NCBI GenBank assembly: GCA_050951725.1
Contig: JBMNJO010000012.1
Coordinates: 355,548-419,547, forward strand
Direction: 5' to 3'
Origin: Syntrophomonadales bacterium
GTDB taxonomy: Bacteria; Bacillota; Syntrophomonadia; Syntrophomonadales; DTU052
DNA length: 64,000 nt
Numbering within the stretch: position 1 is the stretch's first letter; the number at the start of each line of letters is the position of its first letter. A program made the position numbers and the translations under genes. Shown one piece after another: positions 19,326 through 54,626 of this stretch. Below the pieces are notes generated by a model. The model saw only the letters and a program-made list of their open reading frames with translations, was not told where the DNA came from and did not search any database.

Positions 19326-19337
19326 GCACAAAAATAT

Positions 19338-27791: not shown

Positions 27792-28373
27792 ATGACATGG
27801 ATTGAGACCTATTCTGGCCAGAAGGTCAGTTTCCCCTTCCCAGAACCTAGAGCAATCAAGATCCAGGATATAGCGCATGGCCTGTCTCATGTTTGCCGGT
27901 TCTCAGGTCAGTGTTCACATTTCTACTCAGTTGCTCAGCATTCAATCAACATGACAATCGAACTAAATAAGCGTGGCTGCGGTCCCCGGTTGCTTTTACT
28001 GGCATTACTCCACGATGCGTCTGAGGCTTATATTGGAGATATGCCGAGTCCCCTTAAACGATTGATACCGGCATATCGTGAAATTGAAAAGACTGTACAG
28101 CAGGCTATTTGGAATGGCCTGCAGATTACCCCTCCCGCTCAATGGGAAAAAGCAGTCATAAAACGTGCTGATGAATTGCTTCTTGGCTATGAGGCTGAAG
28201 CACTTATGAGGTGTAGCGATTCATGGAACCAGAGATACATCAAGGGAAAAACTCTGTTATCCCCCAAGTACTTTGATTACACCCAACCGGAAATAATTGA
28301 ATCGCAATTCCTTGCCGCCTTCAACAGTTTAACCTCTCCCCATATAAAGAAGGGCGGTGTTTCTTCATGTTAG
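27792..28373 (+). CDS. HD-domain phosphohydrolase (YfbR-like 5'-deoxynucleotidase type)
   Basis: Motifs SVAQHS and ALLHDASEAYIGDMPSP. Confidence 0.7.
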   Translation: MTWIETYSGQKVSFPFPEPRAIKIQDIAHGLSHVCRFSGQCSHFYSVAQHSINMTIELNKRGCGPRLLLLALLHDASEAYIGDMPSPLKRLIPAYREIEKTVQQAIWNGLQITPPAQWEKAVIKRADELLLGYEAEALMRCSDSWNQRYIKGKTLLSPKYFDYTQPEIIESQFLAAFNSLTSPHIKKGGVSSC

Positions 28374-30226: not shown

Positions 30227-30450
30227 GAGTAAGTCGAATATCAGCAACCCAGCATACTGAGAATTTCCACACCCCCAACTCGAATCGCCGCCGAAAGTGC
30301 GGTTCATGCGGACATTGGTATGGTTGCAAAAGTGACGAAACGGCCATTTGCGGGATATCAAAGCAGTGTAAGCCTCGTAATCGGGAGGCTTGCAGAATGT
30401 ACATTACAAAAGCGGAAATGGCGAAAAGAGCGAAAAGGAGGCTGGTTTGA
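30223..30450 (+). CDS. small Cys-rich basic protein
   Basis: 75 aa containing CGSCGHWYGC...C...C...C. Tightly coupled to its neighbours. Confidence 0.35.
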   Translation: MRVSRISATQHTENFHTPNSNRRRKCGSCGHWYGCKSDETAICGISKQCKPRNREACRMYITKAEMAKRAKRRLV

Positions 30451-31370
30451 TGCCTACAAAGATAGAGTGGTGCGACGAAACGTGGAACCCCATACGTACT
30501 GCGGACAGCGGGTACCACTGTACGAAGCTATCCGAAGGGTGCCAGAACTGCTATGCAGAACGCATGAATAAACGCTTTGGCAACCTCAAGCCTTTTGACA
30601 ATGCACCTGCTGAATTTGTACTAAACCAGAAGCAATTGCACAAACCTCTGCACTGGAAGAAACCGCGCCGGGTATTTGTCCAGAGTATGGGGGATTTGTT
30701 TCATGAGGATGTACCATTTATGGTAATCGCCAAAGTTTTTAGGATTATGCACACTTCCAAACATCATACTTTCATGGTTCTTACAAAGCGGCCAAAGCGC
30801 ATGAAAGAGTTTATTGAGTGGTTCATTGGTCCTGAATGGCGTGGTGCATGGCCGCAGGAATACCCCCATGTTTGGCTTGGCGTGACCTGCGAGAACCAGA
30901 CTAGGGCGGATGAAAGAATTCCGGTCCTGCTACAGATACCAGCCGCGAAACGCTTCGTTTCGGTGGAACCGATGCTGGGGACGGTAGATTTAATTCAAGC
31001 CATCGATGTCGCAATTGAGATCAATGGAGAAATTGAAGTGCCGACAGTCGATGGCATTGGGCAATGGCTGAAGTGGGTTATCTGCGGTGGCGAGACAGGC
31101 CCCGGTGCCCGGCCCATGCATCCTGATTGGGTACGGTCGATCAGGGATCAGTGTCGGGATGCAGGGACACCATTCTTCTTCAAGCAATGGGGTGATTGGG
31201 CACCAATACCAACAAAAGATGTCCCCGTCATTGGGTGTGCAGACGGCGGACGATTCCATGACGGACCTAATCCCTCTAGAGGTTTAGCAATGTACCGTGT
31301 AGGCAAAAAAGCCGCTGGGTACCTGATCGACGGCCAGGAGTGGCGGCAGTTTCCGGAGGTGGAGATATGA
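30450..31370 (+). CDS. phage Gp37/Gp68 family (DUF5131) protein
   Basis: MPTKIEWCDETWNP and the three-Cys motif CTKLSEGCQNCYAE are characteristic. ATG 30450 is preferred over 30390. Confidence 0.8.
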   Translation: MPTKIEWCDETWNPIRTADSGYHCTKLSEGCQNCYAERMNKRFGNLKPFDNAPAEFVLNQKQLHKPLHWKKPRRVFVQSMGDLFHEDVPFMVIAKVFRIMHTSKHHTFMVLTKRPKRMKEFIEWFIGPEWRGAWPQEYPHVWLGVTCENQTRADERIPVLLQIPAAKRFVSVEPMLGTVDLIQAIDVAIEINGEIEVPTVDGIGQWLKWVICGGETGPGARPMHPDWVRSIRDQCRDAGTPFFFKQWGDWAPIPTKDVPVIGCADGGRFHDGPNPSRGLAMYRVGKKAAGYLIDGQEWRQFPEVEI

Positions 31371-33180: not shown

Positions 33181-35084
33181 GATTCCACTGCAAAAACAGG
33201 TTGTTTAACCCCTATGGGGGTTTTCAATAGTAAAAATTGTCTTGAGCAGATAGCTCAAAAAGTTCTTTTTCAACTGAAGATCGCTAATTTAGACCTCCAT
33301 TACTATGGTTTTGTGTTCGTTAACCTAAATTTGGGCATAATATCCCTGCTTTTGGCCTTTTCGGCTTCCTTAGCTTGCCCAGAGCCATCCGGGAAAACTG
33401 CTTAATATTTCGGGCTATAATTTTGTAAGCAGTGACCAAGTAAGTTTTTAGCACGCCACGTGTGTAAAGGTTATTCAGATCTTCCCCTCTTTTTAGAGCG
33501 GAGTTGGTTGCTTCGATTCCAGCACGATAACTGGTGTTTTCACGTCTGACCGCAATATTGTGTATTTGATCTCTAACCCGGTCAGCCTGGATGGTTTTTA
33601 AACTAACCCGTAATATCCGGTCTTTCTTCTGGGTCTTTACTGGACATATATCAAAATTCGGGCATCCTTGGCAATCCTCGTGTTTGAAGTGGCAACTGCT
33701 AGTCTTGGAACCGGGATTGAAATCGCTTCTAAATGGGATCTTGCCCTGGGGACAACTGATTATTTTCATATCATCATCAAACTTAAAACTGGTTGTGGAA
33801 AGTTTATCTGATGGAGCCTTACGTCCGGTCATATCTGTATAGTGTAGGTTAACCTCTAGCTCATCTGCCATTTCTATGACCTCTTGGCCGTAGTAACCTC
33901 CATCTAAGTAGATGTCCTTTACATCCGTCCTTTGTTTGATGATGGGTATGCGCTCCTTAGCCATCTCTACATCGCTGATGTTATTGGGTTGTACTGAAAA
34001 GTCGGTAATCACCTGAATCGGGTTTTCTTTGCTACTGGTTTCGCTCACGTTTAAAACGTAGCCGCTATGGTTCTTACCCGCTTTGTTACGGAAGGTAGCG
34101 TCACTATCATAAGCTGATTGCAGGGAACCGCTTTCAATTTCACTACTGGGCTTGGCGAGCCATATTCCCTTAGATTCATCGAAGGCAGCCTGTTCGCCTA
34201 GAAAACGCTTAAGCAGAACCATTTCTCGTTTTGAAGCAAGGTTACGATCCTTATTTGCCAAGTTATCTACCTCTTGCATGAGGTTAAGGACTTTCTGGAA
34301 CCTGCTTTCCAGTTCCTGATTTCTAGTTCTGTATAGTAAATCAGTTCTGAAGCTATCTCTTAACACTTGTTTGAGATTATCGGAAAGCATGTTAGAAGCA
34401 ATGCCTCTTACCGCTTGAACCAATACATCCAGGGCTAACGAGAGTCTACCGGCTTTCTTGATATTGGGAGAAATCAAGGTAGAATCCATACGCTGGTCAT
34501 CGGTTTTTATCCCGGCTTGTTCGATAAAATTCTTGGTTAGGATTTCAAACTGTTGGAAAATCACTTCATCTTGCTCGGGATACTCTAATATGTGCCTATA
34601 AACTCTTTCTCTGAATTCGTAAAGGGTACGTTCAGCCAGGTAAACCTCACCCAGGTTTCTTATACCTAGGGCATAATTGACCTGGAAGTTAAAGTAGAAC
34701 TGCTCGATTAATTCTTGATCAGTATAACCAAACATGTTTTTGATAATCTCTAATGACATCAGTATATTAACTGGAACATTGGGTCTGCCGGTATCAAGAC
34801 AATACATGGGGGCAAACAGATCTTCGTTGATTTTACAAAAAACATGTTCATAGAAAACTGGTGCCCAGGTTTTGTTTAGTAGTTTGGCTACACTTGGTCT
34901 CATGGACTGGTAATGGCTAAAAAGTTCATCTTGATAGTGACTATCGTTTTTACGGAACATACTGCAAAACCACCCTAAAGTTAGTTTATCTTTTATTTGC
35001 TTTAAATATCTAACTATTACTTCAATATTCACAGTGGTTTATCCTGCTGTTTTACAATATTTTTGGGGTTTTTGCAGTGGAATC
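33181..35084 (-). mobile_element. IS element (IS5/IS1182 superfamily-like) with 17-bp terminal IRs and a 6-bp TSD
   Basis: GATTCCACTGCAAAAAC at 33181-33197 equals the reverse complement of 35068-35084. AAGTAA flanks both ends (33175-33180 and 35085-35090). Confidence 0.8.
33320..35032 (-). CDS. DDE transposase (DUF772-type N-terminus, Cys-rich C-terminal region)
   Basis: 570 aa. GRPNVPVNILMSLEIIKNMFGYTDQELIEQ is DUF772-like, and the C-terminus carries CPQGK...C..C..C. Confidence 0.8.
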   Translation of the reverse strand: MNIEVIVRYLKQIKDKLTLGWFCSMFRKNDSHYQDELFSHYQSMRPSVAKLLNKTWAPVFYEHVFCKINEDLFAPMYCLDTGRPNVPVNILMSLEIIKNMFGYTDQELIEQFYFNFQVNYALGIRNLGEVYLAERTLYEFRERVYRHILEYPEQDEVIFQQFEILTKNFIEQAGIKTDDQRMDSTLISPNIKKAGRLSLALDVLVQAVRGIASNMLSDNLKQVLRDSFRTDLLYRTRNQELESRFQKVLNLMQEVDNLANKDRNLASKREMVLLKRFLGEQAAFDESKGIWLAKPSSEIESGSLQSAYDSDATFRNKAGKNHSGYVLNVSETSSKENPIQVITDFSVQPNNISDVEMAKERIPIIKQRTDVKDIYLDGGYYGQEVIEMADELEVNLHYTDMTGRKAPSDKLSTTSFKFDDDMKIISCPQGKIPFRSDFNPGSKTSSCHFKHEDCQGCPNFDICPVKTQKKDRILRVSLKTIQADRVRDQIHNIAVRRENTSYRAGIEATNSALKRGEDLNNLYTRGVLKTYLVTAYKIIARNIKQFSRMALGKLRKPKRPKAGILCPNLG

Positions 35085-35360: not shown

Positions 35361-35657
35361 GTGAGGCAGATTATGTCTATCCGTCGGGGGGACCAAGGGG
35401 AAATAAATCTTGATAAAGCCGAAGAATCCCTAAAAGATTACCGTTTTCTGAAAACTCCTATTCGCAACGAAATAGACGAATTTTTCACGCGACTCCCCGA
35501 GCCTTATAGTTCCTTCGCCCGATTTCGCTATCAACATTCTGAAACCATGGAAGAGGTTGCAGATAAACTGGGATATAGCACCCGCACATGCTATAACTTC
35601 CGGCTGAAAGTACTGAAGTGGTGGGTGTTGTTCCTGACCGGGAAAAAGTGCAGCTAA
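35361..35657 (+). CDS. phage transcriptional regulator, sigma-70 region-4-like HTH (ArpU/RinA-type position)
   Basis: ETMEEVADKLGYSTRTCYNFRLKVLKWW looks like a region-4 HTH. GTG 35361 follows GGAGGTGA. Confidence 0.45.
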   Translation: MRQIMSIRRGDQGEINLDKAEESLKDYRFLKTPIRNEIDEFFTRLPEPYSSFARFRYQHSETMEEVADKLGYSTRTCYNFRLKVLKWWVLFLTGKKCS

Positions 35658-35680
35658 GCGTTAACGAGGGGAGGGATAAC

Positions 35681-36730
35681 GTGACTGCAACCGTCAAACA
35701 CGTACCACAGGAACAAATAGAACGATTCCGAGAATTACAGAATCTGCCGTACAAAATCAAAGTTCAGTATGCTTTGGGCAAAGCTCAAGAGTTTTACGAA
35801 ACGATGGAAGGTAAAGTATTCTGCAGTGTTGGTGGTCTTGATAGCATTACACTACTTTTGTTTTTACGGATGTACATTGATCCTGATATTCCGGGTGTTT
35901 CCGTGTCGGTATTAGAGGACAAAACCGTTCGGGGTGTACACAAACAGTTAGATAACATGGTCTTCTTAAAACCCTATAAATCAAAGGTTAAGGTCATCCA
36001 GGAACATGGGTACCCGGTAATTTCGAAGGAAAAGGCCGGGAAGATACAGTTACTCCAGAACCCGACCGTTAAAAATGAAACTGTGCGCCACGCAATCATG
36101 ACCGGTGAAACTGGAGCTTACGGCGGCTATAGAAAAGGGACCAGGATGAAGTTACCGCAGAAGTGGCTTGAACTATTTGGCGGACCGGAAAACGAGAAGT
36201 ATGGAACCAACTACAAGACCGCACCATTCAAGGTTAGTCCCGATTGCTGTTATTACATGAAGGAAAAGCCGGCTGACGACTGGGCGAAGCAACACGGCCT
36301 GTACCCCTATATGGGCCTTATGGCAAGCGAAGGCGGTCAGCGGGAGAAGGCCCTAATTAAGAACGGTTGTAACTACTACGGAAAGACCGTAACCCGGTCC
36401 TGCCCCTTTGCGATCTTTCAACGGCAGGATATATTGCAACTGGCCCTTGATCTTGAAGTCCCAGTACCTGCGATATACGGCGAAATAGTCCGAGATCCGG
36501 ACGGCAAACTGCGGACAACAAAGGCGCAGCGCACGGGCTGTACAATGTGCGGGTTTGGAATTCACATCGAGCCAAGGCCCCACCGTTTCGACCGACTCAG
36601 GGAAACGAATTACAAGGAATGGCGGTTCTGGATGTACGACATGGGGTGGGGCAAGGTTTTGAACTATATCGGTGTCAAATGGGAGGATGAATATGTTGCG
36701 CCACCCCAACAGATTGCCCTGTTCGGGTAG
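35681..36730 (+). CDS. PAPS reductase-family (PP-loop ATP pyrophosphatase) protein
   Basis: PP-loop-like FCSVGGLDSITLL and a C-terminal CTMCGF cysteine pair. GTG 35681 follows GAGGGGAGGG. Confidence 0.65.
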   Translation: MTATVKHVPQEQIERFRELQNLPYKIKVQYALGKAQEFYETMEGKVFCSVGGLDSITLLLFLRMYIDPDIPGVSVSVLEDKTVRGVHKQLDNMVFLKPYKSKVKVIQEHGYPVISKEKAGKIQLLQNPTVKNETVRHAIMTGETGAYGGYRKGTRMKLPQKWLELFGGPENEKYGTNYKTAPFKVSPDCCYYMKEKPADDWAKQHGLYPYMGLMASEGGQREKALIKNGCNYYGKTVTRSCPFAIFQRQDILQLALDLEVPVPAIYGEIVRDPDGKLRTTKAQRTGCTMCGFGIHIEPRPHRFDRLRETNYKEWRFWMYDMGWGKVLNYIGVKWEDEYVAPPQQIALFG

Positions 36731-37639: not shown

Positions 37640-38632
37640 ATGACCAAGGTTCTTCTGTTTGACGATGGAAAACTGCCAAACCTTGCCTTAATGAAACTAT
37701 CCACCTTTTACAAACATCAGGGTTTTCAAGTGGTTTTAGAACACATAGATAACCCTTCCGGACAGAAGGCTGATATGGTACTTTGTTCCGTTTTATTTAC
37801 ATGGAATAAGCAAAAAGCCGAAAAACTACGCAAATTATATTCCAATATAGTTTTCGGAGGCACCGGATGGGATCTATCAATCAAACTGCCTCCTGAGGTT
37901 GAGTCCTGTAAACCTGATTATGACCTGTATGGTGTCGGCCACATTTACCCCCGTATTAAAGGGATCATGACGCGAGAAGCCAGAGAAAGAAAGGCTCAAG
38001 AAATTGTTTATGCGGGGATAGGGTTTACCAGTCGGGGATGTGTCCGGAAATGCGGCTTTTGCGTTGTGCCTAGAAAGGAAGGCCGGTTGCACCAGGACGC
38101 TCCCATAAAAGATTTAATCAATCCCAGGTCCAATGTAATTATTCTCCTGGACAATAACCTGACCGCCGATCCGGATTGCATTGAAAAACTCAAGGAAATT
38201 AAAGAACGGAATTTGATTATTGACATTACCCAGGGGATTGATGTCCGGCTGATGACCCCGGAAATAGCCAAGGCTTTGTCCGAAGTAAACCATTTGAGAA
38301 GCCTGCATTATGCCTGGGATCTGATGCCATACGAACACCAGGTCATGAATGGGATACAGACGCTATCGAAATTCGTGAACAAACACCGCCATATGTGTTT
38401 TATGCTGGTCGGGTATAACACCACCTTTGAAGAAGATATGTATCGCTATCGGAGATTAAGGGAAATCGGCGTCGATCCATATGTAATGATCTACAACAAA
38501 AGATCAACCTACCAGCTCCACCACTTTGCCAGATGGGTTAACGGTCGGTTTTACAAGAAGTGCAGCTTTGAAGATTATGCTCCATGGATTAAGGCCAGAC
38601 AAGAGGGGGAGTTGTTGTTTAACTATAGTTAA
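37640..38632 (+). CDS. radical SAM protein with B12-binding-like N-terminal domain
   Basis: CX3CX2C motif in TSRGCVRKCGFCVVP. The N-terminal VLLFDDGKLPNLALMKLSTFYK is Rossmann-like. Confidence 0.7.
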   Translation: MTKVLLFDDGKLPNLALMKLSTFYKHQGFQVVLEHIDNPSGQKADMVLCSVLFTWNKQKAEKLRKLYSNIVFGGTGWDLSIKLPPEVESCKPDYDLYGVGHIYPRIKGIMTREARERKAQEIVYAGIGFTSRGCVRKCGFCVVPRKEGRLHQDAPIKDLINPRSNVIILLDNNLTADPDCIEKLKEIKERNLIIDITQGIDVRLMTPEIAKALSEVNHLRSLHYAWDLMPYEHQVMNGIQTLSKFVNKHRHMCFMLVGYNTTFEEDMYRYRRLREIGVDPYVMIYNKRSTYQLHHFARWVNGRFYKKCSFEDYAPWIKARQEGELLFNYS

Positions 38633-38657
38633 CAGGTACAGAAAAGGGGGGACGGAT

Positions 38658-38924
38658 TTGAGCAATTACATAAACATGATAAACAAAGCCAATAAGACGC
38701 TGACAAAGAAAAACGAAGAGCTTGTTTCGGAGAATAAGGTTCTTAAAAGCAGTATATCGTCATTAAAGGCGGAGATTAGCCAATTGAAAGAGGAAAAACG
38801 AATGCTTGAAAGGCGGAGATGCAAGCATAACCGCAGGTGTGAATCGCTGGAACGGACTCTGGGCAGCAGTATAGCCATGTTCGCGCCCCTGGTCACAGCA
38901 ATGCGTGAAAATACTTATGACTAG
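38658..38924 (+). CDS. small coiled-coil protein
   Basis: TTG 38658 follows AAAGGGGGGA. The heptad-rich NEELVSENKVLKSSISSLKAEISQLKEEKRMLE is present. Confidence 0.4.
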   Translation: MSNYINMINKANKTLTKKNEELVSENKVLKSSISSLKAEISQLKEEKRMLERRRCKHNRRCESLERTLGSSIAMFAPLVTAMRENTYD

Positions 38925-38956
38925 CGAAATAGGGGCTCAATAAGAAGAACCACCCG

Positions 38957-38990
38957 GAAGTGTGCAAGAACATTGCACACTTCTTTCATT
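38957..38990 (+). terminator. rho-independent terminator separating the early and late modules
   Basis: 11-bp stem GAAGTGTGCAA / TTGCACACTTC with a 5-nt loop, followed by TTTCATT. Confidence 0.6.
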
Positions 38991-39036
38991 GTGGAGCCAG
39001 AATCTTATTAATAGAGTTTAGGTGAGGGGTGAGGAA

Positions 39037-39192
39037 ATGATTTACAGGGTTTTCACTCCCGAGGGTTTTTTCGAGGTTTTACAGCAACTAACCTACGGAG
39101 ACATGATCATCGCGGGAATTCTGATTATCATCTTAGCGGTTGTAACGTTTAAGGTGATTTACGATATAGCAGACCGGGAGGGATTTATCTGA
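39037..39192 (+). CDS. small single-pass membrane protein (51 aa), absent from ORF track
   Basis: Hand translation MIYRVFTPEGFFEVLQQLTYGDMIIAGILIIILAVVTFKVIYDIADREGFI. GAGGGGTGAGG lies upstream. Confidence 0.5.
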   Translation: MIYRVFTPEGFFEVLQQLTYGDMIIAGILIIILAVVTFKVIYDIADREGFI

Positions 39193-39305
39193 TGTGGGAT
39201 TCCTTTAATCTGCACTCATTAGTGGCCATTTACGCGGCTGTGATTCTGATGCCGATCTCGATAGCCTATTTTATTCAGCGCATAGCAGGTTGGTGGATGA
39301 GATGA
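39192..39305 (+). CDS. small membrane protein (37 aa), absent from ORF track
   Basis: MWDSFNLHSLVAIYAAVILMPISIAYFIQRIAGWWMR. The ATG overlaps the previous TGA (ATGA-type coupling). Confidence 0.4.
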   Translation: MWDSFNLHSLVAIYAAVILMPISIAYFIQRIAGWWMR

Positions 39306-39424
39306 TAGATAATTTCGGGTACTGTGTGATGTGGTTTCTGAGCTATCCTTTACTGATTTGGGCCGTTGCCCTGACTTGCTTATCACTGGCAATCCTAACC
39401 GCCTTTTTAACTCTGGTTAGGTAG
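39302..39424 (+). CDS. small membrane protein (40 aa), absent from ORF track
   Basis: MIDNFGYCVMWFLSYPLLIWAVALTCLSLAILTAFLTLVR. It overlaps the previous stop. Confidence 0.4.
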   Translation: MIDNFGYCVMWFLSYPLLIWAVALTCLSLAILTAFLTLVR

Positions 39425-39439
39425 AGGAGGGGGATTTGA

Positions 39440-39595
39440 ATGTCCTTCAACGTTGATATGGTCGAGGTATACCAACAGTTTGCCAACGTTTTCGGCTCAC
39501 TGACTCCACTATTGTGGCCGTTTATCGGGGTGTTACTGGCCTTGTTTGTTTTTGGGGGTCTGATTACGATTTTCAAGCATTACGCACAGAGGTAG
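39440..39595 (+). CDS. coat-protein-like small membrane protein (51 aa), absent from ORF track
   Basis: MSFNVDMVEVYQQFANVFGSLTPLLWPFIGVLLALFVFGGLITIFKHYAQR. GAGGAGGGGG RBS. Acidic N-terminus, TM helix and basic tail. Confidence 0.55.
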   Translation: MSFNVDMVEVYQQFANVFGSLTPLLWPFIGVLLALFVFGGLITIFKHYAQR

Positions 39596-39598
39596 GCC

Positions 39599-39760
39599 AT
39601 GCCGCATATTACGCTTGATTACAATATCGATTACCTGTACCAGGTCATAGTGGACATCATCTATTCGCTCTGGCCGATCATAGCGGCAGCATTAGGGATA
39701 GCGATGGCGGGATTTCTGCTCTACGCAATCGTACGAGCTTTTAGACAGTGGGTTGATTGA
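39599..39760 (+). CDS. coat-protein-like small membrane protein (53 aa), absent from ORF track
   Basis: MPHITLDYNIDYLYQVIVDIIYSLWPIIAAALGIAMAGFLLYAIVRAFRQWVD. It starts 3 nt after the previous stop. Confidence 0.5.
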   Translation: MPHITLDYNIDYLYQVIVDIIYSLWPIIAAALGIAMAGFLLYAIVRAFRQWVD

Positions 39761-39816
39761 TTGTTTTAGGTACCAAATACCTTAAACATAACCTGAACGC
39801 AAAGGAGGTGAAGTAG

Positions 39817-39963
39817 TTGAGTCTGAACATCATTCCAACCGATGTTATCGGTTACCTGGTTGACGTTTTTGGCGCTCTGTGGCCGATCCTGGCTCTCGGG
39901 TTGGGTATCGCTGCTGTGCCCAAACTCATCGGCTCTACCAAGGCCGTTTTTTCCCGGAGATAA
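39817..39963 (+). CDS. coat-protein-like small membrane protein, paralog A (48 aa), absent from ORF track
   Basis: TTG follows AAAGGAGGTG. MSLNIIPTDVIGYLVDVFGALWPILALGLGIAAVPKLIGSTKAVFSRR, with 39/47 residues identical to paralog B. Confidence 0.65.
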   Translation: MSLNIIPTDVIGYLVDVFGALWPILALGLGIAAVPKLIGSTKAVFSRR

Positions 39964-40183
39964 TTCGGGGTACGACCGCCGTGTAAATGGTATGGAAGGA
40001 GGTGAAACGGGACCACTCGGCAAACCGAATGCTGGTGCAGCGACACCTTCACTACCAGAATTATACGGCGGTCGGAACCGGTTATCCGCTAACGCCAGAC
40101 GGCTGATCACCTACGAACCCGATTAACGTCCTTGCCAGTTGGTGGGGGCGATTGGGATAAAAAACAAAAAAGGAGGGACCCCT

Positions 40184-40327
40184 GTGAGCTTAAACATTGT
40201 GCCCGCAGAAGTTATTACTTACCTGGTTGACATCTTTGGCGCTCTGTGGCCGATCCTGGCTCTTGGGTTAGGTATCGCGGCTGTACCCAGGCTCATTAGC
40301 TCTGCCAAGGCCGTGTTTTCACGGTAG
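40184..40327 (+). CDS. coat-protein-like small membrane protein, paralog B (47 aa)
   Basis: GTG follows AAAGGAGGGA, within track ORF 40139-40327. MSLNIVPAEVITYLVDIFGALWPILALGLGIAAVPRLISSAKAVFSR. Confidence 0.65.
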   Translation: MSLNIVPAEVITYLVDIFGALWPILALGLGIAAVPRLISSAKAVFSR

Positions 40328-40427
40328 TTGCTAGTTGGGTGGGGACGTTAAATGAAAATGCTTGCATGGGCGCCCTTTGCCTGAGAAGACCGAGGGCGCT
40401 TATGGCAAGAAGAGGTGAAGAATAGCT

Positions 40428-40730
40428 ATGTTTACAACTAATGCGGGTGATGTAATTGGTCAGATGATGTCGGTGATGTCCATATTAGGGCCAATATATG
40501 CCTTCTTTTTTGGCCTAATGGCCCTTCGGGCTCTAATGGACACAGTTGCAAACAAGATATTCCCTAAACCTGTAAAAAAGAAAGCCGCAAAAAGACCCCG
40601 AACGAGAGTTAGATATGACCGTAAGCAATATCCCGGACTCCGAGTCAATTATAACAAGACCGGTTTCACCGTCTCATACTTCGATGATGTAAAAAAGGCT
40701 CAAACCCAGAAATTACGGAAAGCCAAGTAA
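40428..40730 (+). CDS. single-pass membrane protein with a highly basic C-terminal half
   Basis: 100 aa. TM ILGPIYAFFFGLMALRALM followed by KPVKKKAAKRPRTRVRYDRK. GAGGTGA RBS. Confidence 0.55.
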   Translation: MFTTNAGDVIGQMMSVMSILGPIYAFFFGLMALRALMDTVANKIFPKPVKKKAAKRPRTRVRYDRKQYPGLRVNYNKTGFTVSYFDDVKKAQTQKLRKAK

Positions 40731-40744
40731 AGGTGGAATAAACA

Positions 40745-41881
40745 ATGGAGATCGTATTGGTGTTTTACCTTTATCACTTTTTTATATTCCTGCTTAGTTT
40801 AGGGTTTATCAGACACCGGCGCACTCTTAAACAAGGTGACCAAGTGCACCGGCTGGCGGTGGTAATACCGGCTCACAATGAACAGAACGTAATCCGTGAT
40901 TCCGTGCGCTCAATTAAGAACGTTAACTATCCTGCAGAGAGATTTGACGTTTATGTAATCGCTGACAACTGTTCTGATCGGACGGCTGAGTATGCCAAAT
41001 CAGCCGGAGCCAAAGTATTAAAGCGCTTTAATAGAACTTTAGCTGGAAAACAACACGCCTTAAAATGGGCGTTTGGACAGATAAATCTTGATGAATATGA
41101 TGCCGTAGTTATCCTGGATGCTGACAATCATGTAGATCCTGATTTCTTAGGTGTCATGGATGATGAACTATCTAAAGGGAACAAGGTAATTCAAGGATAC
41201 CTGGACGCCAAGAACCCGTGTGAATCATGGGTAACGGCAAACTATGCTTACATGGCCTGGTATGGGTGCAGGCTGCTGATGGCCCGTAAGTTCCTGGGGT
41301 TGTCAGCCTGGCTGGGCGGTACCGGGATGTGTATAAGAACCGATGTGATTCGCCGTGTAGGATGGAACCTCCATACATTGACCGATGATGTTGAGTACAC
41401 CTGCCAGTTACTTATAGCCGGGGAAAAGGTCGCGTTTGCCGAAGATGCTATTGTATACGACCAGAAACCCGCCAAATTAAAGGATTCAATGAGGCAACGT
41501 CTCCGCTGGATGCGCGGCCAGACGCAAACCTGCATCAGATACATACCGCAAATTCTAGTGTCAATGGGTCGGTTCTGGTTAAAGGGCAATCTCGGCCAGG
41601 TCGCCCGGTTGTTCGATGCGCTGATGTGGATCCCCATGCACGTGATGATATTTGCCGCCGTAGCCTTGTCAATTCATCAAGGCTGGTGGCAGTACCTGTT
41701 ATCGGTATTCCTATCTGTACCGGTGTTGTACACCTTACCCATGGCTGCAGACCAGATAAAGAAAAGCCGCGCCTGGGCGTACCTGATAACTGGCGGTGCC
41801 TTTTTCCTAACCTGGATACCGGTTACCGCCTACGGAGTGATCAGCTGCGGAAACAAACAATGGCGGAGAACGCCACACTAA
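40745..41881 (+). CDS. membrane-integrated family-2 glycosyltransferase, processive synthase type
   Basis: VVIPAHNE, the DxD-like ILDADNH, and QRLRWMRGQ (the Q(R/Q)xRW motif of processive beta-glycan synthases). One N-terminal and several C-terminal TM helices. Confidence 0.8.
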   Translation: MEIVLVFYLYHFFIFLLSLGFIRHRRTLKQGDQVHRLAVVIPAHNEQNVIRDSVRSIKNVNYPAERFDVYVIADNCSDRTAEYAKSAGAKVLKRFNRTLAGKQHALKWAFGQINLDEYDAVVILDADNHVDPDFLGVMDDELSKGNKVIQGYLDAKNPCESWVTANYAYMAWYGCRLLMARKFLGLSAWLGGTGMCIRTDVIRRVGWNLHTLTDDVEYTCQLLIAGEKVAFAEDAIVYDQKPAKLKDSMRQRLRWMRGQTQTCIRYIPQILVSMGRFWLKGNLGQVARLFDALMWIPMHVMIFAAVALSIHQGWWQYLLSVFLSVPVLYTLPMAADQIKKSRAWAYLITGGAFFLTWIPVTAYGVISCGNKQWRRTPH

Positions 41882-41888: not shown

Positions 41889-44276
41889 GTGACGGGGGTT
41901 GTGAGTATTGTCAACAAAGTAAAGAATTCTAGAATCCGGTACCTGCTAGTTGGGGTGCTGGTGGTGGGGCTGGTGTTTGGTGTACTGTCGCTGACCTATG
42001 CCGCGGAGACTGCTCTACACGATGAGGCACCGGGGACGATCATTACATTTTCGGGAAAACAGTGGATAATCCTTGAGCAGATGCCTAATGGGGAGACGTA
42101 TATCTTACTGTACGACAAGGGTAGCGGGATGGCATTTGACCCCGATAAAACCCAGTTGTTTGATCCCTCGGATCCTAACAACATTGCCTATTACCTAAAT
42201 AACGATTTTCTCAACAGTCTGTCGCAAAGGCACTTAATTAGCGAGCATTCCTGGGATCGAGTATCAGTTAATTTTAGCGATAGTCTTGATGGGACTGATT
42301 ATGGAAATGTTACCTGTAGCATTGGCTTAATTAGCTATCGAGAAGCAGAAAAATATTCAACCTACTACCCCATAAACTACTGGGGATGGTGGTGGACTCG
42401 GACTCCTCGTACTGAGAGCTCCGTCACGGTGTGGTGCGTAAATCGGGATGGCAGCATAGGCGGTAGCACTGCCTCCGATACTAACGGGAGAGTCCAGCCC
42501 TCTTTGTATCTTAAATCTAATATCCTAATAGATCATAACAAAGTAGTGGTAGGCAAGGGAATCGTAAACAAGCCGGATACACCAGCGGAGTTGTCAGCCA
42601 ATAATCAATCCTCCAACGAAGTAACTCTAACCTGGCAGGCAAATACGGAAGAAGACCTAGCTGGCTATAGAGTATATCGAGGTACTAGCATGATTGCTGA
42701 GACAGCATCGACCACCTACACCGATGATACTGTACAGCCCGGCATGACATACAGCTACTCCATATCCGCTTACAATACTGATGACCACGAAAGCGATAGG
42801 AGCGCACCGGTTACGGTGACTACTCCACCGGCCACACCAACCGGTTTAAGCGGAAACGCAGTCGAGAGAACGGTTACTCTAACCTGGGAAGGTCCGGGGA
42901 ATCCATGCTATATAGTCCAGCGAAGTTCCAACGGAACTGACTACACCCAAGTGGCCGAAGTCACGGAAGAATCGTTTACCGAGACAAACGACCTATGGGG
43001 GACAACGTACTATTACCGTGTGGCCCAAAAAGGCCAGGATGGGAATATATCAGCATACTCTGAGGCGGTACAGGTTACTACAGAACCGGTACCTGCACCA
43101 ACAGGGTTAATCGCTGCCATGGAGGGTATGAACATAAACCTATCCTGGCAGCCGGTTGACGGAGTAGATACATACATAGTGGAAAAGAGTATTGGCGGAG
43201 AAACCTGGGAGACGATAGCAACGGTTACATCCACCACGTACACAGATACGGTTGAAGATGGCGATATACAATACCTGTACCGTGTAAGGGCGGACGCTGG
43301 AAACCAGGTGTCCGATCCCTCTAATGTTGCGGGGGTTGCACTGCCTCCAAGTCCTCCCGGCAACGCACAGGCTAACGTGGACGGGAAAAATGTAACCCTG
43401 ACTTGGGAAGCGTCAAGTAACGCAGTGGCCTACATAATAGAACGCAGCACGGATGGGATCACTTGGGAACAAATTATAGAGCAGAGCGAGTTAACATATC
43501 AGGAAGCCGCGCCCCGGTGGGATACCAGCTACCAATACCGTGTTAAATCCAAGAACGCAGAGGGACTTATATCTGTTGCATCGGACCCGGTGCAGGTGAC
43601 CACATCCAGCGTACCGATCCCGGAGAACCTGGAGGCCAGTGTAACGGACAATCAAATCACAATCACGTGGGATGAGGCACCAGGAATTAGCCTCTACCGG
43701 ATACAGCGCAGCGATAACAGTATCTTTTGGGATGACCTGGCCGAAGTTGAGGGCACGAGTTACACCGACAGTGACCTCGAATGGGAAGAAAGATACTATT
43801 ACCGGATTAAATCGGTTGATGGCGACCAGGAATCCGATTATACGGCGTTTATAATGGCGCAGACCAAACCCAAACCGGTACCGGTTGCGCCCCGGTTGTC
43901 CTACTCCGTAGATAACACGAATATCGGCTTGGCCTGGAATACCCAGAACGTACCGATCAGTGGATACCGGATATACGTTAATGATGAACTAAAGGACGAA
44001 ATACCCGGTAACGTTAGTAAGTACAGCTTTGCCGGCGAGAGCGGGAAAAGCTACAAAGTAAAAGTAGAAGTCTACAACATATATGGGACTGCGAGCTCCA
44101 CCGTAACCATAAAGGTAGGCACTTTTACCACTCCGGGAGCTGCCAAAATGGTTGGCGATGTAACCACCAATGCCGTTGCGGTATTTGGCTCCCTGGGGGG
44201 ACTGTTGGCGTTGTCATTGGCATTCAAGGGAGCGGGACCGTTGATTGATGCGGCACGTAAGGTTATAGGACTATAA
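41889..44276 (+). CDS. secreted DUF6273-like domain + FN3-array protein with C-terminal membrane anchor
   Basis: 795 aa. Signal peptide, N-terminal domain (FSGKQWIILEQ...WWWTRTP...RVQPSLYLK), a long array of FN3-like repeats (LTW..., Y.Y.V) and C-terminal TM AVAVFGSLGGLLALSLAF. Confidence 0.75.
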   Translation: MTGVVSIVNKVKNSRIRYLLVGVLVVGLVFGVLSLTYAAETALHDEAPGTIITFSGKQWIILEQMPNGETYILLYDKGSGMAFDPDKTQLFDPSDPNNIAYYLNNDFLNSLSQRHLISEHSWDRVSVNFSDSLDGTDYGNVTCSIGLISYREAEKYSTYYPINYWGWWWTRTPRTESSVTVWCVNRDGSIGGSTASDTNGRVQPSLYLKSNILIDHNKVVVGKGIVNKPDTPAELSANNQSSNEVTLTWQANTEEDLAGYRVYRGTSMIAETASTTYTDDTVQPGMTYSYSISAYNTDDHESDRSAPVTVTTPPATPTGLSGNAVERTVTLTWEGPGNPCYIVQRSSNGTDYTQVAEVTEESFTETNDLWGTTYYYRVAQKGQDGNISAYSEAVQVTTEPVPAPTGLIAAMEGMNINLSWQPVDGVDTYIVEKSIGGETWETIATVTSTTYTDTVEDGDIQYLYRVRADAGNQVSDPSNVAGVALPPSPPGNAQANVDGKNVTLTWEASSNAVAYIIERSTDGITWEQIIEQSELTYQEAAPRWDTSYQYRVKSKNAEGLISVASDPVQVTTSSVPIPENLEASVTDNQITITWDEAPGISLYRIQRSDNSIFWDDLAEVEGTSYTDSDLEWEERYYYRIKSVDGDQESDYTAFIMAQTKPKPVPVAPRLSYSVDNTNIGLAWNTQNVPISGYRIYVNDELKDEIPGNVSKYSFAGESGKSYKVKVEVYNIYGTASSTVTIKVGTFTTPGAAKMVGDVTTNAVAVFGSLGGLLALSLAFKGAGPLIDAARKVIGL

Positions 44277-44294: not shown

Positions 44295-44921
44295 ATGAAC
44301 ATAAAGGGATTGTTTGTAATAGCAATAGTGGGGGCCGTCCTTATGGGCGGTCCTGTTGCCGTTGGTCAGACCACAATTGATTGCACAAAAGCAATCAAGG
44401 CCGAACCTCGCGAGGTATTATGTGGGCAGTTAGTCAGACCTATCAATACGAAAGTGGATATAAAAACCCGGACGATTAACCCCTTTTGGACTCTTCCACG
44501 CACAGCCTCAAGTAACCAAAAACTTAGCATAAACCGATCCCTGCCGGTTAAGGTGCGCGATCTTATAGACGCAACCTCGGAGAAATTGAAACTTGACCCG
44601 GCGTTGGTCCGGGCTGTGGCTATGGCCGAATCAAGCGGAAACCAGGGAGCGGTGTCCCGGGTTGGAGCAGTAGGCGTTATGCAATTAATGCCTGGCACTG
44701 CCCGAGGCCTGGGAGTTAATCCCTACGATTTGGAGCAGAACATTCTCGGGGGAGCTATGTATTTAAGACGGCAATTGGACAAATACCAAGGGAATATCCA
44801 ACTTGCCCTGGCGGCCTATAACGCGGGACCAGGGGCGGTTGATAAGTACCAGGGAGTCCCGCCTTTTCAGGAGACCCGTGAGTACATTGCCCGGGTGATA
44901 AACGCAATGGGGAGGGTTTAG
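44295..44921 (+). CDS. lytic transglycosylase (SLT domain), secreted
   Basis: [28 protein letters not shown] and [10 protein letters not shown] are SLT motifs, preceded by an N-terminal signal. Confidence 0.85.
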
Positions 44922-45959: not shown

Positions 45960-47225
45960 TTGTTGAGAAATAGGATTATCAGAGCCAATATTCTGCTAAT
46001 TCTAATGGTTGTCTTCGTTTTGTCACCGCATGAAATTGCTAAAGCGGATATATGGAATTATGACTATACCGTGGAGGCATATGGATATTACCCTAATGAA
46101 TCGGCGTTCTCTTATCCATTTATAACAGCTGACACACAACATCGACTTGGACGGGAAATATCAGTGGTGAGATTATCATGGGAGATAAAGGCTGGGGACA
46201 CCATACAAATGTTGTTTTATGACAAAAACGCTGTTGAGATGGCACCGGTAAAAGTAACCTCAAGTAGCTTGAGTGCCAGGAAGTTTGCAGTCACAGCTCC
46301 TAAAGGAGCTTGTACCGGCCAGGTGGAACTAATGGCTGGAAATGATACTGGCAGTAGACAAGTCTGGATAAAAGAATTTGATGCGACAAGTTACGGTGAT
46401 TATTGGGGGACAGCCATTTTTGCCGACCCAGAGATCATAGAAGATCCTCCAGATCCACCAGACCCCCCGGATCCGCCAGACCCCCCGGATCCACCTCTAT
46501 ATGATCCAGGAGACCCAGCTGGGGGGGCCGACTTAATAAACGAAATGCGGTCGATACGAGGCGCAATAAATGGCCTAAGTGAGGGGGTAGTAACTGGATT
46601 TCAAGGCGTAAGTAATCAACTTGCTACTTTGACCACGGATATAAATGAACAGTTTGATGAGGTAAAAAGTAAGTTAGATACCATTTCTACGGACGTTGAT
46701 GTCATTAAATCAGATGTCGGAGTCATCAAAGGTGACGTGGCGGCGATGAAAGACTATTTCACAACGCCACGTTCACCCTCCCCCTTACAAGTAAATACAC
46801 TACCGCAACCGACCATGGACAGTACCGTGCCTGATTTAACCGAACCATATCAGAATCCATATACCTACGACCGTGGGGAACCCACGTATCCACCCGCAGC
46901 ATTCGGGCCAGAACCGTTGCCGTTCGCGCCCGATCCCCAGGTGATGCCGCACGATGACCCACTGATAGCGGAAACACCGCAGCAATTAGATCCACCGGTT
47001 ACACGGGAAGACCCGCGCCCTACAGACCCGGTCATTAAAGAAGAACCGCGTCAGATGGACCCGGTGAACATGGACCCACCTCGGGACAAGGATGAGCCCA
47101 TAGCGAGACAAAACCCTTTTGGCAAAGAGACGCCAATAACACCTAAAAACCCATTGACGCCTCAAACACCAATAAACCGGACAACTCCATTAACGCCGCA
47201 ACCGCCGCGTACACCGGGAGGATAG
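45960..47225 (+). CDS. membrane-anchored or secreted protein with (PPD)n linker, coiled segment and Pro-rich C-terminus
   Basis: 421 aa. N-terminal TM/signal, DPPDPPDPPDPPDPPDPP at about 46441-46500, TDINEQFDEVKSKLDTISTDVDVIKSDVGVIKGDV, then a P-rich tail. Confidence 0.6.
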   Translation: MLRNRIIRANILLILMVVFVLSPHEIAKADIWNYDYTVEAYGYYPNESAFSYPFITADTQHRLGREISVVRLSWEIKAGDTIQMLFYDKNAVEMAPVKVTSSSLSARKFAVTAPKGACTGQVELMAGNDTGSRQVWIKEFDATSYGDYWGTAIFADPEIIEDPPDPPDPPDPPDPPDPPLYDPGDPAGGADLINEMRSIRGAINGLSEGVVTGFQGVSNQLATLTTDINEQFDEVKSKLDTISTDVDVIKSDVGVIKGDVAAMKDYFTTPRSPSPLQVNTLPQPTMDSTVPDLTEPYQNPYTYDRGEPTYPPAAFGPEPLPFAPDPQVMPHDDPLIAETPQQLDPPVTREDPRPTDPVIKEEPRQMDPVNMDPPRDKDEPIARQNPFGKETPITPKNPLTPQTPINRTTPLTPQPPRTPGG

Positions 47226-47236: not shown

Positions 47237-47689
47237 ATGTATGAGTTCTTTCAAGGCCTATTCCAGAATGGCATAAATGCACTGCATGTGTTTTTCACAT
47301 GGATAGGATTGCTGCTAGAGAGCTTCTTCGGAGCACTTAAAACTGTTCTTATTACCTTATTTCAGCCGGTCGTTGCCTTCTTTCTGGGTATAGCCTACCT
47401 TTTGTCAAAATGCTTTTATATAGCGGTTTTGGTTGTCCAAGTGATCTTTGGGATATTTAAGGTCGTGCTGGGCGTGATCATGGGGGTGTTTAATACCTTT
47501 GCCCAGCTGCTGGGATTCAGTGGTAGCACCGATTACTATTACCTGCCGACTGCCTATCAACCAGGATGGAGTGCGGTGACTGATGTGCTTAACAGTACCG
47601 GAGTCCATACGATTGCAATACTTATGACCGTTTTTGTCTGGCTGATTACGGCCTACGCTGTCATACGTATAGCAGGGGGTGAACGCTAA
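47237..47689 (+). CDS. polytopic membrane protein (about 4 TM)
   Basis: 150 aa, hydrophobic throughout. Confidence 0.55.
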   Translation: MYEFFQGLFQNGINALHVFFTWIGLLLESFFGALKTVLITLFQPVVAFFLGIAYLLSKCFYIAVLVVQVIFGIFKVVLGVIMGVFNTFAQLLGFSGSTDYYYLPTAYQPGWSAVTDVLNSTGVHTIAILMTVFVWLITAYAVIRIAGGER

Positions 47690-50631: not shown

Positions 50632-50751
50632 ATGGTATTTGAGTTCTTTTTTGGCGCTGCTGCCGGTATCAGTTTGGGGGTAGCGATAGTGGTGATACCT
50701 TGTCTACTGCTTTATAACCGGGTAGTGGCCGGGCGAAGGGGGAGACAGTAA
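50632..50751 (+). CDS. small single-pass membrane protein (39 aa), absent from ORF track
   Basis: MVFEFFFGAAAGISLGVAIVVIPCLLLYNRVVAGRRGRQ. GGAGGGA RBS. The stop overlaps the next ATG. Confidence 0.45.
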   Translation: MVFEFFFGAAAGISLGVAIVVIPCLLLYNRVVAGRRGRQ

Positions 50752-51098
50752 TGTTTTTCAAAAAGAAGAATCTATCACCCGATGTGGTGATACTTATAAA
50801 CGAACGCGAAATCCGGGAATTGCCCGTGGACGATGAAAACGAGGAAGCTATATCGGCAGGTGGGCTATCTCTCCCGAAAGCGGATGCCGAGGTAAGATAC
50901 TTTCCCTCCGGTGGCCGCGCATTTATCTATGGCTGCACACCTGCCTATCTGGCCGAATGTGAAAACGTTGCCCGGCTCGAACAGTCCACGGTCCTGCGAA
51001 ACCTCTTTGACTACGGCGCAACGGGAAAGACCGCTAATATCCAATTCTATGTAATGATGGCGGTCCTAATTATAACGATATTCCTCCTGAGGGGGTGA
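50751..51098 (+). CDS. hypothetical protein with C-terminal TM helix
   Basis: 115 aa, C-terminal IQFYVMMAVLIITIFLL. Confidence 0.45.
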   Translation: MFFKKKNLSPDVVILINEREIRELPVDDENEEAISAGGLSLPKADAEVRYFPSGGRAFIYGCTPAYLAECENVARLEQSTVLRNLFDYGATGKTANIQFYVMMAVLIITIFLLRG

Positions 51099-51102
51099 GA
51101 AG

Positions 51103-51447
51103 ATGGCAGATCCACAACAACCGCAACAAAAATCGATACAGGACATAATGAGTGGGGAACTCTTCGCCAGCTCCCGCAGTGATATGGTAGAGACCCTTAA
51201 ATTCATGGAAAAGCACGGAACCCCGCTGTCAGAGAGACAGGTCGCAGCCGTGGGCCTCCTGAGGGTGCTACAAAAAAAGCGGAATAACAAGGTATATGAA
51301 CCAATAATCCAAGCCATGTCTGATATGTCAAAAGAGATCACACCTCCGGGCCTCTTCGTGGACGTGATCGAGAAGATGACCCTAGGGGGATTCGTGACTG
51401 GCAAGGTCCGAATGTCTAAGCTATTTGGGAACGGGGGCGACAGGTAA
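51103..51447 (+). CDS. hypothetical protein
   Basis: 114 aa. GAGGGGGTGAG RBS. The stop overlaps the ATPase start. Confidence 0.45.
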   Translation: MADPQQPQQKSIQDIMSGELFASSRSDMVETLKFMEKHGTPLSERQVAAVGLLRVLQKKRNNKVYEPIIQAMSDMSKEITPPGLFVDVIEKMTLGGFVTGKVRMSKLFGNGGDR

Positions 51448-54587: not shown

Positions 54588-54626
54588 TCTCCTGCCTAAA
54601 GGTACGAACAGAAGGAGTTGACGAAA

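Follow-up and report, generated by a model that had tools for sequence, protein, structure and literature searches.

Eight small membrane proteins of a Syntrophomonadales prophage as probable coat and assembly proteins of a tail-less, inovirus-like virus

What does a run of eight very small genes, each encoding a protein with a single hydrophobic helix, do in the genome of a Syntrophomonadales bacterium? The genes, called O1-O8 here, lie at positions 39037-40730 of a 64,000-nucleotide (nt) stretch of GenBank assembly GCA_050951725.1 (contig JBMNJO010000012.1, positions 355,548-419,547 of the forward strand), which is the whole stretch analysed and is referred to as the window. An original prediction, made from the letters of the window alone, likened several of them to the coat proteins of filamentous phages. 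The array sits in a prophage of ~35 kb at a tRNA-Val gene (~19.4-54 kb of the window), and its products are probably the virion coat and assembly proteins of a tail-less, temperate, inovirus-like virus which is assembled at the membrane and integrated at tRNA-Val. The eight open reading frames (ORFs) and the features of their proteins, with lengths in amino acids (aa) and TM for transmembrane segment, are:

39037-39192, plus strand: O1, 51 aa, ATG start, single TM; NCBI ACOX4Q_09030
39192-39305, plus strand: O2, 37 aa, single TM; start overlaps the O1 stop, translationally coupled to O1
39302-39424, plus strand: O3, 40 aa, hydrophobic; ATGA overlap with the O2 stop
39440-39595, plus strand: O4, 51 aa, coat-like paralogue
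39599-39760, plus strand: O5, 53 aa, coat-like paralogue
39817-39963, plus strand: O6, 48 aa, TTG start, coat-like paralogue; candidate major coat protein
40184-40327, plus strand: O7, 47 aa, GTG start, old tandem paralogue of O6
40428-40730, plus strand: O8, 100 aa; divergent coat-like N-terminus and a 67-residue tail with 21 K/R

In a listing of all frames of at least 25 aa, the eight ORFs were found at the predicted positions and lengths, all on the plus strand, and each is preceded by a Shine-Dalgarno-like sequence or overlaps the stop of the gene before it. The closest matches to the ribosome-binding site (RBS) consensus, AAAGGAGGTGA and AAAGGAGGG, lie upstream of O6 and O7, that of O6 being the consensus AAAGGAGGTGA itself. 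The expectation of one hydrophobic helix per ORF also holds: every protein contains one 19-residue window with a Kyte-Doolittle mean of 1.85-2.89. The flanks of this segment are net acidic on the N-terminal side and net basic on the C-terminal side, O1 excepted. In O6 the C-terminal flank is a 4+ basic tail, and its AlphaFold2 (AF2) model is a single continuous 40-residue helix (residues 7-46, pLDDT 86).

The genes had been described as mostly invisible to the ORF track, which is true of a length-thresholded ORF list and not of NCBI. The NCBI record of this metagenome-assembled genome (MAG) annotates six of the eight (O1, O4, O5, O6, O7 and O8, as ACOX4Q_09030 to _09055; O6 is protein ACOX4Q_09045 of the Syntrophomonadales MAG). 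By exact-sequence look-up O2 is called by JGI and Logan only, and neither possible start of O3 is present in the protein collection. Arrays of 37-53 aa genes are thus only partly annotated, the NCBI record being without O2 and O3.

A JGI contig with the same O1-O8 layout (L008; relatives are given such labels where they have to be told apart) is 93.8% identical to window positions 38875-40988. Substitutions between the two fall mostly at third codon positions (counts for positions 1/2/3: O1 0/1/5, O4 0/0/9, O5 0/1/9, O6 2/0/7, O7 1/2/9), while the long ORFs that overlap the array (39766-40110 on the minus strand and 39842-40126 on the plus strand) are disrupted in L008 by indels of 1, 5, 3 and 1 nt. 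Searches with one hidden Markov model (HMM) per ORF found the order O1-O2-O3-O4-O5-O6(-O6')(-O8)-GT2, where GT2 is a glycosyltransferase gene, in 16 further loci drawn from IMG/VR, JGI, ENA metagenomes, a Syntrophomonadaceae MAG, Desulfosporosinus sp. OT and Moorella phage MCACPph1. Median pN/pS, computed over 12-25 loci, is 0.20 for O1, 0.49 for O2, 0.33 for O3, 0.13 for O4, 0.33 for O5, 0.27 for O6 and 0.44 for O8, next to 0.30 for the neighbouring GT2 gene; at intermediate divergence it is 0.10 for O2 and 0.02-0.11 for O3. The best conserved member is O4 (aa identity 78-100%, at the lowest of these ratios); O1 shows 65-98% identity across 12 loci, and O8 is found in some relatives only. O1-O8 are therefore real genes under selection. 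The comparison of homologous islands, which the original prediction proposed as a check, found the frames conserved, the changes mainly synonymous and the gene order kept, and it bears out the claim that selection acts on the short frames (pN/pS 0.13-0.49) and not on the indel-broken longer ones.

Several of these proteins are kin to one another and to large secreted proteins encoded downstream. When an O6-family HMM was searched against the 1,492 six-frame ORFs of the window, it matched O6, O7, O5 (E 2e-7), O4 (1e-5) and O8 (1e-3), and also the last 40 residues of a 795-aa protein with fn3 domains (8e-4). Profile-profile comparison of multi-locus alignments with hhalign gave probabilities of 97.6% for O4-O5, 97.3% for O5-O6, 92.7% for O4-O6 and 91.7% for O6-O8, of 95-96% (E 2e-8) for O6 against the anchor of the 795-aa protein, and of 87.6% for O6 against the anchor of a second, 344-aa fn3 protein. 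O1, O2 and O3 remained below 4% against anything; being likewise TM proteins of comparable composition, they serve as an internal check that the matches are not purely compositional. Judged by these profiles, O4-O8 are one paralogous family, shared with the membrane anchors of the adhesin-like fn3 proteins, and O1 is unrelated in sequence to O4-O8. Both fn3 proteins begin with a signal-like segment and end in a TM followed by a basic tail. The g3p protein of Ff phages has this topology as well: a signal peptide, an ectodomain and a C-terminal anchor. The O6 family is narrow, with eight clusters among 1.84 billion representative proteins; none of the eight is annotated and two have O8-like basic extensions. 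In one IMG/VR relative (L001, 14362-14532) an O8-like gene (E 2e-7) follows a 670-aa fn3 gene and is not beside O6, a placement suggesting that the O8-type gene is mobile within the module.

A P-loop ATPase of 216 aa in the same element is related to the Zot/pI assembly proteins of inoviruses. Pfam Zot scores it at 19.2 bits, below the cut-off of 20.3; its family comprises 92 homologue clusters in Clostridia, of which many carry PF05707 (Zot) and one is named by NCBI as a Zot-domain protein. The AF2 model (pLDDT 84) has as its best PDB match by Foldseek the N-terminal domain of Neisseria Zot (2r2a, E 7.5e-8, TM-score 0.51/0.56), and its best BFVD match is "Zonular occludens toxin [Inoviridae sp.]" (E 9e-11), followed by AMDV2_16 of an uncultured virus. 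The ATPase is therefore kin to Zot/pI. Roux et al. (2019; PMC6813254) defined the inovirus signature as a pI-like ATPase together with single-TM proteins of 30-90 aa. In the window, a pI/Zot-like ATPase of the FtsK-HerA class shares the element with seven single-TM ORFs of 37-53 aa and one of 100 aa. The same study reported that the pI proteins of Gram-positive inoviruses have no C-terminal extension, and the window ATPase, like these "atypical" forms, is without one. The study also gave an inovirus prevalence above 15% in Desulfosporosinus (PMC6813254). Fragments of ~5 kb in IMG/VR which are centred on the ATPase (L003, L005) are consistent with detection by that pipeline.

No gene for a capsid, portal, terminase or tail was detected among the prophage genes, of which all ORFs of at least 250 aa could be assigned. 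These comprise the recombinases, a DUF1828 protein, two transposases of insertion sequences (IS), a C5 methylase, DUF5131, PAPS-reductase-like and radical SAM proteins, the GT2, three fn3 proteins and a secreted proline-rich protein of 421 aa. At the left end a CI-like repressor follows the serine recombinase, and plus-strand genes then run to the tyrosine recombinase. The third fn3 protein (775 aa) is encoded between the 150-aa protein and the assembly block. The neighbouring features are:

19338-20909, both strands: left end of the prophage, a tRNA-Val gene (plus, 19338-19412) abutting a large serine recombinase (minus)
40745-41881, plus strand: membrane GT2 glycosyltransferase; follows the O6/O8 gene in all 14 loci with downstream sequence
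41889-44276, plus strand: secreted fn3/DUF6273 protein, 795 aa, signal peptide; O6-homologous C-terminal anchor at nt 44151-44267
44295-44921, plus strand: SLT lytic transglycosylase with an N-terminal hydrophobic segment
44923-45957, plus strand: fn3 protein, 344 aa, signal peptide, C-terminal coat-like TM anchor with basic tail
45960-47225, plus strand: secreted or anchored protein, 421 aa; PDPP linker, coiled segment, proline-rich tail
47237-47689, plus strand: 150-aa protein with four hydrophobic segments, conserved across the family
50751-52097, plus strand: assembly block of a 115-aa protein (C-terminal TM), a 114-aa soluble protein and the 216-aa Zot/pI-like ATPase (51447-52097)
53332-54162, plus strand: tyrosine recombinase near the right end of the prophage; same layout in MCACPph1

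Among the closest known systems, Moorella phage MCACPph1 (GenBank OR602863.1, 19,989 bp), an unclassified virus deposited as a complete genome, is a compact relative. It has, in the same order, O1-O6, GT2, fn3, SLT, fn3, the 150-aa membrane protein, the ATPase (70.6% identity) and a tyrosine integrase, and likewise a serine integrase at its left end; its six small genes are all entered as hypothetical proteins. It differs in size (20 kb versus ~35 kb), has a single O6 and no O7 or O8, and is without the radical SAM, methylase and IS genes. More distant homologues of the ATPase (37-38% identical) are carried by 60 plasmids of 11-25 kb in Bacillus and related Bacillales genera. One of them, pAH187_12 of B. 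cereus AH187 (CP001178.1), which belongs to the 11-15 kb plasmids of the B. cereus group, is a circle of 12,481 bp with one coding strand, encoding a Rep_trans protein (98.9 bits) and, in the same order as here, homologues of the 115-aa protein (E 1.5e-6), the 114-aa protein (1.5e-7) and the ATPase (37% identity, 7e-44). It further encodes a 57-aa coat-like protein (O5 HMM 6e-7), an fn3 adhesin with a coat-like anchor and a proline-rich protein of ~430 aa; an 87-aa protein of gVp-like size was also seen. In contrast to the window it is a Rep_trans rolling-circle replicon, no homologue of O1-O3, GT2 or SLT was detected in it, and it is catalogued as a plasmid. From its gene content pAH187_12 looks like an unrecognised inovirus replicative form, and this gene set indicates the same morphogenesis module in a replicon of textbook inovirus architecture. 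The window lineage couples the module to CI, recombinase and DnaB/G39P-type functions instead. A literature search found no paper on MCACPph1, nor any on pAH187_12 as a phage.

Compared with the inoviruses proper (Ff, Pf, CTXphi and the Gram-positive B5 type, with g8p, g7p, g9p, g6p, g3p and pI/Zot), the element shares the Zot/pI-like ATPase as its best structural match, a cluster of 37-100 aa single-TM proteins with acidic N-terminus and basic C-terminus, a major-coat candidate that is a single long helix with a hairpin or terminator after its gene, and adhesins of g3p-like topology, with signal peptide, ectodomain and a C-terminal coat-joining anchor. It differs from them in having five coat-like paralogues instead of one major coat protein and no membership in a known coat family, in its genome (20-41 kb, a CI repressor, serine and tyrosine recombinases, DnaB/G39P-type replication and no rolling-circle replication (RCR) Rep), in the additional GT2, SLT and, in relatives, diversity-generating retroelement (DGR) genes, and in an ATPase without a TM segment of its own.

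The IME1 elements of Dehalococcoides are also similar. These are integrative elements of 21-28 kb without tailed-phage hallmarks, with a pI-like ATPase beside several small TM proteins and with both tyrosine and serine recombinases; filamentous particles were seen, and the elements were proposed to be double-stranded DNA (dsDNA) budding or filamentous viruses (Nesbo et al. 2026, preprint, 10.64898/2026.09.15.751708). They have 14 conserved orthologous groups and were reported only in Chloroflexota, with Bacillota unmentioned, and their small TM genes, which resemble SSV1 VP1, lie immediately downstream of the ATPase (10.64898/2026.09.15.751708). The window holds an element of this general kind, at least 20 kb long, integrative, without Caudoviricetes hallmarks and with a pI-like ATPase and small TM proteins. 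Its host belongs to a different phylum and its small TM genes lie ~11 kb upstream of the ATPase.

O6 and O7 were predicted to be a duplicate pair sharing 39 of 47 residues and an identical 29-nt core, and both figures were reproduced. Over 140 nt their DNA shows 81% identity, which does not extend past the borders of the ORFs. The proposed synonymous versus non-synonymous comparison supports the O6/O7 frame: by the Nei-Gojobori method dS is 0.69, dN 0.10 and dN/dS 0.15, and 17 of the 27 nucleotide differences are at third codon positions. The pair had also been called recent. This was rejected, as dS is about 0.69 and the copy-1 genes of the window, L008, L009 and L012 cluster together, as do the copy-2 genes; the duplication therefore predates these four sampled lineages. 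In L017 and L021 each copy has the other as its nearest relative (89%), which points to independent duplications or concerted evolution. The number of O6-type copies ranges from one to three across loci; L021 has an extra, divergent O6-like gene between O3 and O4 (1448-1591) besides a tandem O6 pair, giving three O6-type genes. Synonymous variants in the TM core are specific to the locus and common to both copies (GGC/ATC in the window, GGT/ATT in L012, GGA/CTT in L009), and so the identical 29-nt core reflects gene conversion and not recency. Codons 6-12 at the N-terminus are specific to the copy (IIPTDVIG in copy 1, IVPAEVIT in copy 2). Going by these codon patterns, the exposed N-terminal segment is held distinct between O6 and O7 while the TM core is homogenised by gene conversion.

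The 220 nt between the two copies (39964-40183), left unexplained in the original prediction, form a real spacer which can now be largely accounted for as a non-coding hairpin and the leader of O7. The RNA elements in and around the array are:

38956-38984, plus strand: terminator-like 12-bp hairpin just upstream of O1
39968-40079, plus strand: long imperfect RNA hairpin in the 5' half of the spacer; dominates the fold; non-coding
40132-40183, plus strand: 3' part of the spacer, a 20-nt stretch resembling the sequence after O7, then an A-rich leader and the RBS of O7
40360-40409, plus strand: GC-rich stem-loop after O7, at the position where all relatives have the hairpin or terminator behind their last O6-type gene

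Against L008 the spacer shows 13 mismatches and 11 gap columns. The indels of 1, 5, 3 and 1 nt that separate the two sequences mark it as non-coding, and coding readings (a 39-aa ORF at 39987-40106 or the long overlapping ORFs) were rejected on account of these indels in a relative that is 94% identical. As RNA, 233 nt around the spacer fold to -89.6 kcal/mol (z -3.9; 0 of 200 shuffles as stable). The basal 14-bp stem of the large hairpin is kept in four lineages with six one-sided changes, all of them to G.U or U.G pairs and none breaking a pair; the G.U pairs imply that it is the sense transcript which folds into the hairpin. L009 carries a deletion of the hairpin's interior. The 20-nt stretch in the 3' part resembles the sequence after the O7 stop to a degree that 3 of 500 shuffles equalled. 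A strong stem-loop is found 3' of the last O6-type gene in every relative, and in L001, L002, L017, L018 and L022 it is a canonical terminator with a T-run. Gene VIII of the Ff phages, too, is followed by a terminator. Read in this light, the spacer is best interpreted as the 3' hairpin of copy 1 (O6) followed by the leader of copy 2 (O7). Its hairpin may terminate, attenuate or stabilise the transcript, and the hairpin upstream of O1 probably marks the start of a new transcription unit. An Rfam scan of 38800-40800 returned only a chance sub-threshold plastid match; the spacer is unique, without a second copy in the phage collection or the window.

If O1-O8 are virion proteins, they would insert in the cytoplasmic membrane so that their acidic N-termini face outwards and their basic C-termini inwards, an orientation predicted from their architecture. 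O4, O5, O6, O7 and O8 would form a helical coat of several paralogues. O6 and O7 are likely its major, highly expressed species, because their RBS is of consensus type, a hairpin or terminator lies behind the gene and the gene has been amplified repeatedly in tandem. The long poly-basic tail of O8 could bind DNA, and O1-O3, as unrelated small membrane proteins, are probably minor or tip components or assembly factors. Because a coat-like module is their C-terminal anchor, the two secreted fn3 adhesin-like proteins would join the coat during assembly, in the manner of g3p in Ff phage, and serve in adsorption. Assembly and export of a presumably filamentous particle would be driven by the membrane-associated block, in which the Zot/pI-like ATPase is joined by the 115-aa TM protein and the 114-aa protein. 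The SLT transglycosylase would open the peptidoglycan. Candidate roles of the GT2 are virion glycosylation, receptor masking and polysaccharide synthesis.

Several results weigh against this interpretation. The element (~35 kb; relatives 20-41 kb) is far larger than the characterised bacterial filamentous viruses of ~4-11 kb. No RCR Rep or Rep_trans was detected in the scanned genes of the window or in close relatives, which encode DnaB and a G39P-like loader and hence point to dsDNA replication; a small rolling-circle genome (~4-15 kb) is a feature of the distant Bacillus plasmid relative alone. The ATPase is without a TM segment, the packaging ATPase B204 of STIV matches it almost equally well (TM-score 0.50-0.52), and weak tblastn matches to Halorubrum spindle-shaped virus BLv25 (E 3e-3) and to Muninn virus of Odinarchaeia (E 6e-8) hint at kinship with archaeal-virus ATPases. 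None of the eight proteins matches a coat family in Pfam or PHROGs at E up to 10. The O6-family profile found nothing relevant in the PDB, the O6 model found nothing better than E 5 in a BFVD fold search (a single helix is uninformative), and a BLASTP comparison of O6 with a Pf3 coat sequence was not significant (E 0.06). With a net charge of -2 on its C-terminal flank, O1 falls outside the basic-tail pattern, so that the acidic-TM-basic organisation claimed for the array stands generally and fails for O1. Finally, a prophage copy with two IS elements may be damaged or defective. Given that neither sequence nor fold matches one, O1-O8 are not assigned to any coat-protein family, only viewed as working like one. 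The analogy with filamentous-phage coats that had been drawn at the outset thus stands strengthened by the Zot/pI-like ATPase, the lack of tailed-phage genes and the g3p-like adhesins, and falls short in known family membership.

The main alternative is a different kind of virion, in which the small TM proteins and the fn3 proteins, as type-I spikes, sit in a host-derived lipid envelope around dsDNA, in a budding, pleomorphic or spindle-like particle comparable to plasmaviruses or pleolipoviruses. The large genome, the dsDNA-like replication genes (DnaB and G39P-like loader), the spike-like proteins with signal peptide and C-terminal TM anchor and the ATPase matches to BLv25, Muninn virus, AMDV2_16 (BFVD) and STIV B204 (PDB) agree with it, and for the analogous IME1 lineage the choice between budding and filamentous particles was left open (10.64898/2026.09.15.751708). 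Such an enveloped virion is nevertheless considerably less likely than an inovirus-like one, for the ATPase finds its best matches among inovirus Zot proteins, 12-kb Rep_trans replicons of classic inovirus architecture carry the same assembly block together with the coat-like module, and O6 resembles inovirus major coats in being one 40-residue helix with a basic tail of 4+. The walls of Gram-positive-type hosts would also make vesicle budding harder than filament extrusion.

Holins and exclusion proteins of phages are small single-pass TM proteins as well. O1-O8 might accordingly be membrane peptides without a structural role, serving the prophage as holins or antiholins, in superinfection exclusion or as peptides of toxin/immunity type, a reading to which the SLT-type muramidase 3.5 kb downstream of the array and a weak PHROG match of O1 to a "moron" membrane protein (E 0.005) lend something, as does the 29-30 aa TM family of inoviruses that Roux et al. 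linked to superinfection exclusion (PMC6813254). It is improbable, since a lysis cassette would not be expected to comprise eight genes of strictly conserved order with five paralogues among them, the GT2 and 795-aa genes separate SLT from the array, and there are no tailed-phage structural genes that would need holin release. The same module also anchors two large adhesin-like proteins, and an O6 gene repeatedly amplified in tandem with a terminator behind it fits an abundant structural product. Least likely of all, and very improbable, is a non-autonomous satellite or integrative mobilisable element, or a secretion- or conjugation-like apparatus, with the small proteins as parts of a cell-surface machine. 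The absence of a capsid and the two recombinases would allow this, the adhesin-like proteins, peptidoglycan hydrolase and polytopic membrane protein superficially resemble Gram-positive conjugation modules, and the IME1 elements were once proposed to be satellites (10.64898/2026.09.15.751708). However, no VirB4, coupling-protein or relaxase homologue was seen among the scanned genes, the ATPase is Zot-like and only 216 aa long, relatives are held as viral records in IMG/VR and GenBank, and a 41-kb contig joins the two prophage ends like an excised circle.

That contig (L004, IMGVR_UViG_3300034520_000280) has the tyrosine-integrase end contiguous with the serine-recombinase end (12357-13202 and 18794-20485). 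It is therefore circularly permuted relative to the prophage, and its arrangement is consistent with an excised circular form.

A tectivirus-like reading, with the 421-aa protein as a double jelly-roll capsid, was rejected: the protein is secreted and has PDPP repeats and a proline-rich tail, and the ATPase hits no tectivirus (none in a tblastn search of 50,697 phage records). No major capsid candidate of Tectiviridae type is present among the assigned ORFs of at least 250 aa, a statement made without a structure-based jelly-roll search.

On a broader and more tentative view, which is possible rather than probable, the inovirus-like element belongs to an uncharacterised lineage of temperate viruses whose hosts are anaerobic Clostridia (Syntrophomonadaceae, Moorella, Desulfosporosinus, Syntrophothermus). 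In this lineage a siphovirus-type module for lysogeny and dsDNA replication would have been fused with a membrane assembly module of inovirus type, made up of the Zot ATPase, the helical coat family with its five paralogues and the adhesins whose anchors are coat-like. The particles would be filamentous or budding with 20-41 kb of possibly dsDNA, and the lineage would be the Bacillota counterpart of IME1, linked by descent to the 12-kb inovirus-like "plasmids" of the B. cereus group. The combination of a pI-like ATPase with small TM coat genes is already known, as are cryptic inoviruses of Clostridia, and a close relative had been deposited. New are the five-paralogue coat-like family, present also as an adhesin anchor; the repeated tandem amplification of O6 with gene conversion of its core, and the conserved hairpin after the gene; the 20-41 kb genome context without RCR; and the link to B. 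cereus-group plasmids. Characterised bacterial filamentous phages are small single-stranded DNA viruses. Temperate elements of 20-41 kb that combine inovirus assembly logic with the lysogeny and replication genes of dsDNA phages bear on the size, chimerism and origin of membrane-extruded viruses. The coat-like family, defined here and without database annotation, and the adhesins that share its module provide handles on the group, and Bacillus cereus AH187 (pAH187_12), Moorella sp. ACPs and Desulfosporosinus sp. OT are culturable entry points.

The remaining observations concern the surroundings of the array. In two relatives a DGR (bAvd-like gene plus reverse transcriptase) lies between the GT2 and fn3/DUF6273 genes (L001 4724-6593, L002 1514-3266), directly upstream of the latter, which fits a receptor-binding role of that protein. 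The window has no DGR cassette, and the 795-aa gene directly follows GT2. In the early region of the prophage two IS genes for DDE transposases are inserted (25946-27349 and 33320-35032, both on the minus strand); at the second of these sites L008 carries two small genes instead of an IS. A cluster of DNA-modification type (28367-31370, 35618-36730 and 37640-38632) encodes the C5 cytosine methylase and the DUF5131, PAPS-reductase-like and radical SAM proteins. The radical SAM gene and a coiled-coil ORF (38526-38924) are absent in L008, where genes for proteins of 172 aa and 54 aa precede O1. Between a 158-aa gene and the tyrosine integrase lies a 131-aa ORF (52910-53305) which matches only the AAA+ lid domain PF23902, below the cut-off, and is apparently a truncated ATPase remnant. 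Beyond the tyrosine integrase, 54405-54587 and 54618-55034 encode a putative HicA/HicB toxin-antitoxin pair, as read from the sequences.

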